DNA of 64,000 bases, from positions 192,001 to 256,000 of the forward strand of contig CAWCKY010000004.1 of the NCBI GenBank assembly GCA_963796275.1. Direction: 5' to 3'. Under the pieces are notes generated by a model. The model was not told where the DNA came from, did not search any database, and saw only the letters and a program-made list of their open reading frames with translations. This DNA is from an uncultured Acidobacteriota bacterium. GTDB lineage: Bacteria; Acidobacteriota; Blastocatellia; RBC074. Shown piece by piece: positions 8,850-12,625 of the stretch. The position numbers and the translations under genes are program-made. Within the stretch, counting starts at the first letter, position 1; each line of letters starts with the position of its first letter.

Positions 8850-10682
8850 TTATGGATCAAAACTGCGAATTGTTCGCAATATATCGATCCCCGTAAAATC
8901 GTCGGGCTTACTGAACGCTTCGAGCAGCGGCGTATTGATGATCGCCTGTTCATATGGGCCCGGCTTGCCGAATGGGTCCTGCGGCGATCCCATCCACTCG
9001 GAAGGAGCGACGATCCGGTAATTTGCGATGCGGCCGCGTCCAATCACTACATGGTGAATCAAGGCGCCCTGCGCGTCTTCCCAAAAACCCACGCCGACAG
9101 CCTCCTCCCGCACTCTATAGGGTTTTGACATCGCCACGTCTCGGCGCTTAAGGCAATCGAAAGCCTTCAAGAGGTATGTCAACGCGATAATGCCGCAGTA
9201 GCCGATATGATAGGCGCGCGCGCGAATGCGATCGAGCGCGTTCGGTCTTTCCGGTATCTGCCAGCGCAACCTTCTGGCCGGTAGTTGAAAACGTGGGAGA
9301 TCGATCTCCAGTCCCATGCCAGCAGCACCGCCGCTGACCGCCTGGATAAACTCGCTCTTCAATTGACCGCCCGCCGCCGTGATCCACTGCCTCGCGAGCG
9401 GACCGGATTCAACCGCCTCACGATCCCAACGTGGCGCCATGTTCCAGCTATACCGGTCCATCCAGTGACTGCGCCCGGGCGCTGGAACCGTATGATTATT
9501 CCATGGATGCAGAGGCGAAAGCGGGATACCCAGCGGATCGACGATCACCGCACCATCATCCCCCTTTTGATAAAAAGAACGGTTGGTAAATTCTTCAATC
9601 CCCGCGTTTATCTCCGATAAACGAACGGTCCTTAATTTACCATTAATTATCACTCCTGGCGTCACAAGCCTACGCACACCCCAGTTATTGGAGTTTTCAA
9701 ACTTCGCATTGTAGCGGGAAGGATCATCCCACATACCCGCCGAGATCAGATTCGCGGGCAAGTAACCGGCGTGATGATAGCGCGCATCGATCTTATAGAA
9801 GAAATTGGCCAGGTCATCCCATATAGCCGCGGTCTTCTTGGCGTAGTCAATCAAGTGATTCAGGCGGCCCAGGACTTGATTGAATATTTCTTTGTCGGGA
9901 AGGATGCCGACTCCGCCGGGAAAGATCGCGGATGGGTGCGGATACTTACCGAAGACGAGCGTAGCGATCTCGCAAGCGATGCGAATCATACCCAATGCTT
10001 CGCGGTAAAGCGCGCCGCTCATCGGGTTCATCTCCCGCATAATGTCGGCGATCGTTTGGTAGCCGTGTAATGCGGAAAATTCGGCCTTCGACTCCTGAGC
10101 TTTAGCCCAGATCGTCATGCTCGTGCGGCTGATCGTCGCCTCCGAATAATCAGGTCCGGATTGCACAAAGAGATGGCGAGTGAGCGATGCCATCAACTCG
10201 GCCGCCGCTCCCAATCCGCGCGTGATAATCGCGAGAGGTGGCGGGGCAATATCCAGCGCCATCTCCAATGCCATGGCCGAGGCAATAGCGTTTGCCCCGG
10301 CGCCCCACCCGCAAATACGGCTGGCGATCGGCACGGCATCAGCCGGCAACCGGCCTTTGAGGATCTGCTCGAGATCCCAAAAATTGGTTTTCTCAACTCG
10401 CGCATCGAGTACCCGGCGGTTTTTGAAGTCTATGATGGCTCGTAGCGATAAGGGATTCTTCGCGCGCGCCAGCGGGTCGACTTCGAAATAACGAGCATCG
10501 GGATTGTTCGCCGCCTCCTCTAACCGCCGTTCGTGGTCCGAGTTCGCTTCAGTCTTAACCGTCCGACCAATTGCCTGCGGTCCGGCAGCCCCTGTCACCG
10601 CAAAGGGATCGGCGGGTCCTCGCAAACGCAACTTCCCCTGACCGCGGGAGTCGAGATCGATTGGCAGATTTTTGAAGACCAT
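8850..10682 (-). CDS. [NiFe]-hydrogenase large-subunit homologue B (group 1h/1l-like) lacking 3 of 4 metal-binding Cys
   Basis: Start MVFKNLPID; DPLAR; L1 motif RICGWG (second Cys lost); GPDYSE, KYPHPSAIFPGG, YSWNMAPRW, ESGPLAR; ends [14 protein letters not shown] without CxxCxxH. Confidence 0.85.
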   Translation of the reverse strand: MVFKNLPIDLDSRGQGKLRLRGPADPFAVTGAAGPQAIGRTVKTEANSDHERRLEEAANNPDARYFEVDPLARAKNPLSLRAIIDFKNRRVLDARVEKTNFWDLEQILKGRLPADAVPIASRICGWGAGANAIASAMALEMALDIAPPPLAIITRGLGAAAELMASLTRHLFVQSGPDYSEATISRTSMTIWAKAQESKAEFSALHGYQTIADIMREMNPMSGALYREALGMIRIACEIATLVFGKYPHPSAIFPGGVGILPDKEIFNQVLGRLNHLIDYAKKTAAIWDDLANFFYKIDARYHHAGYLPANLISAGMWDDPSRYNAKFENSNNWGVRRLVTPGVIINGKLRTVRLSEINAGIEEFTNRSFYQKGDDGAVIVDPLGIPLSPLHPWNNHTVPAPGRSHWMDRYSWNMAPRWDREAVESGPLARQWITAAGGQLKSEFIQAVSGGAAGMGLEIDLPRFQLPARRLRWQIPERPNALDRIRARAYHIGYCGIIALTYLLKAFDCLKRRDVAMSKPYRVREEAVGVGFWEDAQGALIHHVVIGRGRIANYRIVAPSEWMGSPQDPFGKPGPYEQAIINTPLLEAFSKPDDFTGIDILRTIRSFDP

Positions 10683-10834
10683 AGATTGGTGATTGCTGAT
10701 TATTGATTGCAGGGGGATTCTCCACAAAAACCGCATAAATACAAAAGACACAAAAGAGATCTTTTCTTTCTTGTGCCCTTTGTCTTTTCGTATTTTTTTG
10801 GGTGAATCTCTCTCCGCGATCCGCCATCAAGATG

Positions 10835-12625
10835 TTACGGATCGAAGCTGCGAATCGTTCGTAAAAGATCAATGCCTGTGAAATCTTCCGATCGCGTACA
10901 TTCTTCGAAGAGTGGCGTGTTGATCACCGCCGCCTCGTAGATGCCGGGCAATCCCGATGAATCGCGTGGTGATCCCATCCACCCGGTTGGAGTGGTGATC
11001 TGGTAGTTTGAAATGCAAAGATTCCGGTTGACGATGTGATGGGTGATGGCGCCGCTGCTGCTCTCCCAAAATCCGGCGCCGATCGTTTTTTGCGGGATGA
11101 ACTGACCGGCCGACATCCCGGTCTGTCCAGTCCGCACCAGATCGAAGGCTTTGAGCAGGCTGGCATATGCGGTCAGGCCGGCATATGCCATTTGATATGC
11201 GCGGGCGCGGTTGCGCTCGAGTGTGTTCGGCTTTGCCGGTATCTGCCAGCGTAATGTGATGGCCGGCCGCGTGCCCATCGGCATATCAAACTCCAAACCA
11301 TAGCGGTCCTGCCTGATAAATTCACAATCAAGACTTCTGCTCAATGCGTTTACCCAAAGAAGCGCGATCGGCCCCGTCTCCATCGACTGGCGATCCCACC
11401 TCGTCGAGGTGCTCCAGCTGTAGCGATTCTTCAATTGACGTTCAGCCGGATCGGGAATCGTCTCCTTGTTCCACGGATGCAGGTGAGACAGCGGCATGCT
11501 CAAGGGATCAGTCGGAAACGAACAATGATTCCATTGCCGATAGAATGAGTGATCGATAAATTCTTCGATCCCTATGTTGATATCGCTCAGCCTCGCCGTG
11601 CGCCATTCCCGGTTAGTGATGATACCCGGGCTCGCCATTCGGCGCCTCGCCCATTCATTACAGTTCGCGTAACTCGCGTCGTAACTTGCGGGATCGTCCC
11701 AACACCCCACGCTCAGAAAATTTCCCGGCAATTCGCCGGCGAGGCGATAGAGCGGGTCTGCTTCATAAAAGAACTCTACCAGGTCGTCCCAGATCGCCGT
11801 AACTTTCTTCGAGTAATCGAGCAGCGTGCTGACGCGACCGAGAATCTGATTAAAAAGATCCTTGTCCGCTTCGATCCCCAATCCGCCAGGATAAATCGTG
11901 GTCGGATGCGGATACTTGCCGAAAATCATGGTGGCGATTTCGCATCCCAACCTCGACATCTGGAGAGCCTCGAGATAAAGCGGGCCGTACATCGTGTTCA
12001 TCTCGCGCATGATATCGGCGATGGACATCAGACCGTGAATCTCGACGCCAGGAGCCCTCGTCACTTGCGCTTTGGCCCATATCGAGAGGCTGGTGCGACT
12101 GACTGCGGCCTCGGAATAGTCCGGCCCGGTGAGCAGGAATAGATGGCGGGCGCATTCGCTCAGCATCTCGCCACACGATCCCAGATTCCGCGCGATGATC
12201 GCCAGCGGGGGCGGCGTGAGATTCCCGGTCATCTCCAATGCCATCGTTGCGGCGATCGCGTGGGCGCCGCTCGCTCGCCCACTGGTGCGGCAGGCGATCT
12301 GAGTTGCATCGAAAGGATTCCTCTCCTTCAACATCAGTTCAAAGCCGCAGAATTGCGTGTTTTCGACGTAGGCATCGAGCACTCGCCGTTGCTCGAAATC
12401 GATTATAGAATTCAAGACCAACCCGCCCGATGCGCGCGTCAACGGATCGATCGTGAAATTCCATACGTCCGGACTTTCGGCACCGCTTTCCATCGTTTGC
12501 TCTATCCCCGGCGCGCGATCCACACGGGGTTCTTCAACGATGTCGAAAGACGCTACCGGTCTATTGTCGTTCAAACGCGCTCGCCCGTAGGCATCATATT
12601 TGATTGGCAAACTCTTGAATACCAC
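10835..12625 (-). CDS. [NiFe]-hydrogenase large-subunit homologue A (group 1h/1l-like) lacking all 4 metal-binding Cys
   Basis: DPLTRASG; L1 motif RTSGRA in place of RxCGx[25 protein letters not shown]; ends [14 protein letters not shown]. Confidence 0.85.

Follow-up and report, generated by a model that had tools for sequence, protein, structure and literature searches.

A histidine-kinase operon of Blastocatellia with two hydrogenase large-subunit paralogues lacking the nickel–iron site: a candidate hydrogenase-derived sensor module

We analysed a 64,000-nucleotide stretch from an uncultured Acidobacteriota bacterium (Blastocatellia, RBC074; GenBank assembly GCA_963796275.1, contig CAWCKY010000004.1, positions 192,001 to 256,000), hereafter the window, in which two genes, paralogues A and B, encode homologues of the large subunit of nickel–iron (NiFe) hydrogenases that stop exactly where the last cysteine motif of the catalytic proteins would begin. 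On balance we favour, with some reserve, the reading that A and B are nickel-free large subunits under purifying selection and parts of a hydrogenase-derived sensor module, not of an enzyme. The decisive context is that a hydrogenase small subunit and a histidine kinase lie with them in the same conserved operon. The four genes, in window coordinates, are as follows.

12717..13562, minus strand: hydrogenase small-subunit homologue, 281 residues (PF01058, E 3e-21)
10835..12625, minus strand: paralogue A, large-subunit homologue, 596 residues, GTG start, PF00374 match
8850..10682, minus strand: paralogue B, large-subunit homologue, 610 residues, ATG start, PF00374 match
5665..8488, minus strand: hybrid sensor histidine kinase with an N-terminal helix, three PAS domains, HisKA, HATPase_c and a receiver (Pfam)

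Both paralogues match the PF00374 profile up to position 501 of its 508 positions (E 2e-49 and 4e-56), and both genes end GAT CC[A/G] TAA, giving ...RTIRSFDP and the stop. The L2 motif of catalytic large subunits, DPCxxCxxH, is absent from both proteins, which terminate after DP. The L1 motif, RxCGxC in catalytic large subunits, reads RTSGRA in A and RICGWG in B, so that neither retains the cysteine pair; the first L1 cysteine is kept in B, which leaves none of the four NiFe cysteines in A and one of four in B. At the position of the canopy arginine, A has SSSG and B has DAQG, with a glutamine. No CxxCxxH was found in the three frames of the spacer after either stop, and a CxxC about 30 codons downstream of the A stop, present in two frames, is not at the homologous position. 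A sequence-only reading of this DNA by a model had placed both stops at the first L2 cysteine codon, described the L1 and canopy changes as given here and seen no cysteine remnant downstream, and the two open reading frames (ORFs), the alignment and the frame search bear it out on all of these. It had also raised the case of A and B being nearly identical, which was not found: they share 303 of 608 positions (50%) and are therefore not recent copies of each other. The start of B is the ATG giving MVFKNLPI, as in A and all relatives; a 633-residue ORF for B from 10751 was rejected as an over-extension on the same ground.

Structure prediction and conservation both point to proteins that have kept the architecture of a large subunit. 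An AlphaFold2 model of A (predicted local distance difference test score 86.1, predicted template modelling score 0.87) had as its top Foldseek match 5aa5_C, a group 1h large subunit (TM 0.89/0.94, root-mean-square deviation 1.6 Å, 554 columns), and in this model the large-subunit fold is intact; B matched 5aa5_C in sequence (phmmer E 7.5e-110). Among the 217 columns that are at least 90% conserved in 22 cysteine-bearing relatives, A retains 174 and B 176; the L1 cysteine pair and the canopy arginine are among those that have changed. The nearest cysteine-bearing relatives end at the histidine of ...DPCxxCxxH and carry no C-terminal extension, and A and B are shorter than these proteins by only seven residues, CxxCxxH. 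Two details of the sequence-only reading had to be given up at this point. It had taken the removal of a C-terminal helix as part of the change; no such helix was lost, because the nearest cysteine-bearing relatives already stop at the L2 histidine. It had also listed WMGSP, in place of WNxxP, among the changes, and decay was rejected as its origin: the cysteine-bearing nearest relatives read WMASP, and WMGSP is accordingly a trait of the lineage.

The truncated form is widely shared. With B as query, 1933 of the 8000 candidates scored reached E ≤ 1e-10. The best 120 of these were classified: 68 end FDP or FDL without L2, 12 end at DPCxxCxxH and 40 have the motif followed by an extension. The truncated proteins make up a large family in Blastocatellia-like Acidobacteriota. 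Among clustered protein representatives the whole clade forms four clusters, three of them of truncated types, and a metagenomic homologue of B (P0001) is 92% identical. Matches to B at E ≤ 1e-30 were found in 42 of 61 family genomes, a count that takes in group 1h matches (about 39% identity) and the unpublished genome G002; metagenome contigs searched with B gave one poorly related locus (L097). As to the N-termini, cysteine-bearing members of the clade and a group 1l-like outgroup begin MCF[KR]NLPIEFD, with a cysteine at position 2, the no-extension group begins MYF or MCF, and all truncated forms begin MVF or similar.

An assembly error at the stops was rejected, since other assemblies show the same ends, in 68 of the 120 homologues listed, and contigs of two other studies (X2 and X3, 93-95% alike) bridge both stops; contigs of run X1 have identical letters and reach neither. 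No strain difference at the B stop (8850-8852) was among those listed, which cover positions below 10835 and so the B stop only. Within 8853-9392, 27 substitutions were listed in the strain contigs, of which 23 fall at third codon positions, and 4 of 181 B residues are changed. The indels listed (12 of 15) all lie in spacers, namely after B, between A and B, between the small subunit and A, and upstream of the small subunit. We further estimated the ratio of nonsynonymous to synonymous substitution rates (dN/dS; NG86 method) for orthologue pairs from 34 public loci with 0.05 < dS < 0.8. Median ratios were 0.127 for A (25 pairs), 0.086 for B (11 pairs), 0.103 for the small subunit (25 pairs), 0.130 for the kinase (21 pairs) and 0.110 for the cysteine-bearing paralogue (1 pair), which indicates that purifying selection acts on all four operon genes. 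The sequence-only reading had asked for the TAA codons to be confirmed and had proposed that A and B are pseudoenzymes rather than pseudogenes. The other assemblies and strain contigs speak for the stops, and the low dN/dS, third-position bias, intergenic indels and retention of about 80% of conserved columns support the proposal well.

The small subunit encoded upstream of A has neither a twin-arginine translocation (Tat) signal nor a C-terminal tail and ends soon after its last cysteine; its best solved match is 5aa5_A, HofK (E 5.6e-67). Eight cysteine columns are invariant in all 21 small subunits of truncated loci and in all six of sister loci. The HxxC...CxxxxxC stretch of group 1h/1l small subunits such as HofK has no cysteine in the window protein, and the distal segment is absent across the whole kinase-linked clade. 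From motif spacing and the layout of standard small subunits, we take the eight kept cysteines to be the proximal and medial [4Fe-4S] sites and the lost stretch to be that of the distal cluster. With the distal cluster missing, the small subunits of this clade would lack the usual electron exit, which is easier to reconcile with a sensor than with an energy enzyme. The proximal ligand pattern is CCCC in the operon small subunit and CDCC, with an aspartate, in the window genome's own group 1h small subunit.

To place the operon in context, 76 loci were fetched from species-representative genomes. The order small subunit, A, B was seen in 22 loci in addition to the window; in four loci (L009, L011, L012 and L028) the small subunit and A are followed by a cysteine-bearing no-extension paralogue, and in others (e.g., L026, L031, L032 and L045) the small subunit is accompanied by a single A-like gene. 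A divergent third truncated type, ending RSFDV and a stop, occurs in L072 (3208-5046) and L082 (2928-4823), where it keeps the first L1 cysteine (RACGTES) and has a small subunit beside it. The next same-strand gene after the large subunits is the kinase, whose orthologues have 3-7 PAS domains, GAF in most, HisKA, HATPase_c and a receiver according to Pfam; no GAF domain was found by Pfam in the window kinase. A same-strand kinase cluster lies downstream in 28 of 33 loci. We then counted the kinase N-terminal module in those loci with at least 1500 bp of downstream DNA, scoring it as present when a same-strand homologue of the N-terminal 180 residues starts no more than 600 bp beyond the last large-subunit gene. 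The module follows the truncated large-subunit genes in 31 of 33 loci (the misses being L072 and L082) and cysteine-bearing sister genes (with extension) in 6 of 7, and it was found in none of 21 outgroup (group 1l/1h-like) loci.

The first ~180 kinase residues, a long helix and the first PAS domain, show 77% mean column identity over 19 loci, including records from Rokubacteria and Acidimicrobiia. In the 9.46 Mb window genome these 180 residues have one match, the kinase itself, and the kinase core has 47. The kinase N-terminal module is confined to the surroundings of this hydrogenase clade. The neighbourhood holds no conserved membrane or diaphorase partner, and apart from the kinase no same-strand gene is conserved with the hydrogenase-like genes; in five sister loci, PAS/GAF kinases and response regulators adjoin (Pfam). 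In the window kinase, a GQT/GQS tripeptide repeat at about 7400-7750 (minus strand), collagen-like according to Pfam, follows the second PAS domain, at a position taken up in relatives by an acidic linker and PAS sequence.

A mechanism compatible with this arrangement can be outlined. Each of A and B would pair with the small subunit, as ordinary large subunits do, and a double dimer of small subunit–A and small subunit–B might form, like that of the Ralstonia eutropha regulatory hydrogenase. The module would dock on the helix-PAS segment at the kinase N-terminus, and its state would set kinase activity. That state would most likely be the redox or oxidation state of the iron–sulfur (FeS) clusters, or else the occupancy of the emptied active-site pocket by a ligand. 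H2 bound at a NiFe site cannot be the signal, because the ligands are gone and some carriers lack the maturation machinery. The cysteine-bearing sisters have complete CxxC and CxxCxxH motifs, lack a C-terminal extension and are accompanied by the same kinase module. They are probably true H2 sensors, and a sensor of this kind is the probable ancestor of the dead form.

Several observations weigh against this account. The contact of the module with the kinase and the signal sensed are both what we infer from context, and the assignment of the eight cysteines to proximal and medial clusters draws on motif spacing and the layout of standard small subunits. The kinase has several PAS/GAF domains and could do its sensing on its own. 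It is separated from B by 361 bp that hold a weak terminator-like hairpin, although such sites are no more frequent here than in shuffles (8 against 7.7 expected); a promoter scan gave 3 against 5.6. The truncated loci of the RSFDV type, L072 and L082, have no kinase module downstream. In the window itself, one extra base near 6013, outside a homopolymer (GAG-T-ATCC against GAG ATC C in relatives), puts the receiver (5665..6012) in another frame, with the switch between ...DDDHDTRE and ILSVML... in a tblastn comparison with the L038 kinase; this may be a real split into a kinase and a stand-alone receiver or an assembly error. Finally, A is damaged in a few relatives, being divided into two ORFs in L056 and altered at the C-terminus in L019 and L023, which may reflect errors in metagenome-assembled genomes or occasional real decay. 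A complex prediction for the small subunit with kinase residues 1-190 scored 0.28 and 0.18 against a mark of 0.32, without controls, and carries no weight either way.

We next consider how A and B came to lack the site. The truncated proteins form one clade with support of 99 in FastTree (123 rows) and 95 by the Shimodaira–Hasegawa-like approximate likelihood-ratio test (SH-aLRT) in IQ-TREE under the posterior mean site frequency (PMSF) model (55 rows), and A and B remained joined (93) after the N-terminal extension, L1, canopy and C-terminal columns were dropped. Inside this clade, A together with the RSFDV type and L045 is monophyletic, as is B (100), and the cysteine-bearing no-extension group forms a separate clade (99). 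The A and B trees are congruent (IQ-TREE), which means that the pair co-diversified. Because the A tree mixes loci carrying B with loci carrying a cysteine-bearing partner, the simplest history judged from these phylogenies is that all three paralogues probably coexisted in an ancestor and were then lost differentially. We give the better chance to one loss of the site before the A/B duplication. That the loss predates the duplication was also the claim of the sequence-only reading; the best trees favour this order and stop short of proof, since placing B with the no-extension group costs just 2.6 log-likelihood units (approximately unbiased (AU) test, p 0.428) and two thirds of the alignment separate A from B.

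The competing history, which rivals the single loss and leaves the sensor reading untouched, has two independent losses, with B arising from the cysteine-bearing no-extension paralogue through a nonsense change at the same cysteine codon or through conversion of its 3' end from A; we see it as a serious contender that falls short of an even chance. Beyond the AU result, B falls with the cysteine-bearing forms in a tree of alignment columns 300-520 (72), and outside A and those forms in one of columns 520 to the end (92). The B position between A and the kinase is occupied by a cysteine-bearing paralogue in the four loci named above, B shares a glutamine at the canopy arginine position with one no-extension lineage (L009/P0068), and the window B and its closest relatives retain the first L1 cysteine. 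TGA is the commonest stop after DP (13 of 27 A genes and 10 of 21 B genes) and is one step from TGY; these stops are compatible with an original TGY-to-TGA change and prove nothing. Against two losses stand the best trees, the monophyly of B and of the no-extension group each, and the added coincidence of reaching the same truncation point twice. The argument from the shared gene slot also loses weight if, as is probable, three paralogues coexisted in the ancestor. The cysteine-bearing no-extension paralogue in L009 (10089-11900) and P0068 has itself lost the canopy arginine (GQG, as in B), forms a long branch and may be an intermediate towards the dead form.

A wider evolutionary scenario, which we regard as possible and put forward tentatively, is that a lineage nearest to the high-affinity enzymes of groups 1h and 1l became a kinase-coupled gas sensor, without any link to the recruitment of group 2b, and that Blastocatellia then dropped the NiFe centre. 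What is left would be a two-cluster FeS protein, held by two dead large subunits, that reports redox state or O2 and not H2 to the hybrid kinase. Such a module would be a fossil hydrogenase serving as a redox sensor, and the first pseudo-hydrogenase of group 1/2 type. The hallmarks of the sensor lineage would then be, with the same reserve, a small subunit without a distal cluster, a large subunit without extension and the helix-PAS kinase module.

Among alternative functions for the module, the one that survives best, although we consider it improbable, is a redox protein or an enzyme whose emptied pocket has taken on a new reaction or ligand, on the model of NuoD/NuoB of complex I, where the former NiFe site has turned into a quinone site; the kinase would then be a mere neighbour or a regulator of expression. 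Such a role would account for the strict retention of both FeS cluster sites and of the scaffold around the former site with an unchanged fold, and several A-type proteins retain the canopy arginine and the first L1 cysteine, which might serve a new site. However, electrons would lack their usual route to an external acceptor, the distal cluster, no conserved residue replaces the lost cysteines across A and B, and the neighbourhood described above offers no membrane or diaphorase partner, its sole conserved same-strand companion being a kinase whose N-terminal module is confined to this clade.

The maturation genes bear on whether the complex might still sense H2 through an unusual metal site or a borrowed cysteine-bearing large subunit. 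The other PF00374 loci in the window genome are two on contig C6, both group 1h-like, of which one adjoins hyp and endopeptidase genes. At the second (2229346-2232258, minus strand), 26 kb from the intact copy with hyp genes, the large subunit is split into two ORFs (274 and 362 residues), a frameshift or pseudogene. No cysteine-bearing member of the kinase-linked clade was found in the window genome. Of five family genomes examined, G009, G014 and G003 contain other hydrogenases and HypD, and in G024 and G048 (97% and 95% complete) HypD was not found and the A/B pair gave the only PF00374 matches. HypD was present in three of four genomes with a cysteine-bearing paralogue (the exception being L009) and was not found in the genome of the single-gene locus L032, completeness not being established in either case. 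Dependence on Hyp maturation was accordingly not found for the A/B pair, as G024 and G048 carry it without HypD. Retained H2 sensing would draw some support from the sister loci with full cysteine sets, which share the small-subunit type and the kinase, and from the group 1h-like hydrogenase and hyp genes on C6 as a possible regulatory target. We nevertheless judge it very unlikely, given the NiFe cysteines that remain (none in A, one in B), the lack of a cysteine-bearing clade member to borrow in the window genome, and the situation in G024 and G048, where there is nothing to mature or regulate.

Least credible of all is that A and B are decaying relics that merely look intact, for although the catalytic ligands are lost, A is broken or altered in three relatives and the window kinase next door is frameshifted, the ORFs are full-length with most conserved columns retained, dN/dS is about 0.1 over many pairs, strain changes show the third-position bias and no coding indel among those listed, and the family extends across many genera, including those behind the 42 of 61 genome matches (with the group 1h matches and G002 counted).

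A lipid-type gene set lies upstream of the operon in the window (15611-28349) and, at a shorter distance, in many relatives (L009, L016, L017, L019, L020, L024, L027, L038 and L045). It includes two NAD_binding_4 'male sterility' reductases, AMP-binding enzymes, a pyruvyl-transferase-like protein and DUF4199, and may represent plain synteny or a functional link. Seven loci (L017, L019, L022, L023, L038, L048 and L049) are labelled Heliomicrobium or Heliobacteriaceae in public records, and these labels look wrong because the loci are syntenic with, and closest to, Blastocatellia and Acidobacteria loci.

In the full-text literature searched, which left subscription journals largely outside and excluded supplements, we found no description of cysteine-less group-1-type large subunits or of a kinase-linked group-1-like hydrogenase. 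The family is annotated as 'hydrogenase large subunit' in public records, and hydrogenase surveys count PF00374 genes or drop sequences without cysteine ligands. The module is widespread in soil Acidobacteriota, so that annotation as hydrogenase would inflate estimates of H2 oxidation there and hide a signalling system. If the sensor reading is correct, the loci would form a series from a cysteine-bearing sensor through one dead and one live large subunit to two dead ones and to a single dead one, showing a complex metalloenzyme turning into a cofactor-poor sensor. They would also point to hydrogenase sensors linked to kinases having arisen a second time, independently of group 2b. The cysteine-bearing sisters are candidates for H2 sensors compatible with O2; their small subunit is a minimal one with two clusters, they need no proteolytic maturation, and they may interest builders of H2 biosensors.

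We finally compared the operon with known hydrogenase systems. Among the solved structures compared by sequence, group 1h comes closest (5aa5, E 7.5e-110), and the Huc chains of group 2a score far lower (E ~1e-24). The high-affinity uptake hydrogenases of group 1h (Hhy/Hof, 'actinobacterial-type') and group 1l provide the closest solved structure and the closest sequence relatives for both subunits. They share with the operon the lack of a Tat signal, and the 1l-like outgroup also has the N-terminal M-x-F-K-N-L-P extension. In contrast to A, B and their small subunit, however, these hydrogenases carry the full set of four NiFe cysteines and a C-terminal extension, and their small subunits have three FeS clusters and a long tail. 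Group 1h also has a proximal site of three cysteines and an aspartate where the operon protein has only cysteines (CDCC versus CCCC), and the kinase module is absent from all 21 group 1l/1h-like outgroup loci.

Cysteine-less relatives are familiar from group 4, where NuoD/NuoB of complex I, Ehr and Mbx have lost the metal ligands, keep an FeS small subunit beside the large one and are put to other uses. Those are membrane complexes of another Pfam family and lineage, whereas the proteins described here belong to PF00374, are group-1-like and appear soluble from their context; the operon is linked to a kinase and has no membrane subunits nearby. A further candidate for comparison, group 1m from Actinobacteriota, is described as clustering with a HybD peptidase, a CooC-type ATPase, a tetratricopeptide repeat (TPR) protein, a BirA-like protein and DUF1059 (Ray et al. 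2022, PMC9561532). None of these genes was among the neighbours in the window or the five sister loci, which sets the operon apart from group 1m as there described.

The parallel for the proposed function is group 2b, the HoxBC-HoxJ system of Ralstonia eutropha and HupUV-HupT, which the HydDB table gives as the only histidine-kinase-linked NiFe class (PMC5037454) and which is described as a sensor and not an energy enzyme (PMC5037454, PMC5665086, PMC8159394). There too, cytoplasmic small and large subunits are encoded with a PAS histidine kinase, and in the R. eutropha regulatory hydrogenase two HoxBC heterodimers are reported to bind a histidine kinase tetramer (PMC5665086). Its large subunit is described as having no C-terminal extension (PMC8159394), as in the cysteine-bearing sisters here. 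Its small subunit is described with three [4Fe-4S] sites and a C-terminal extension of ~50 residues for the double dimer (PMC5665086), whereas that of the window has two cluster sites and no such extension. Unlike group 2b, the window operon lacks the NiFe ligands and so has no H2-binding NiFe site, its kinase belongs to a type of large hybrid kinase with GAF (in orthologues) and receiver domains, and it combines two large-subunit paralogues with a single small subunit.

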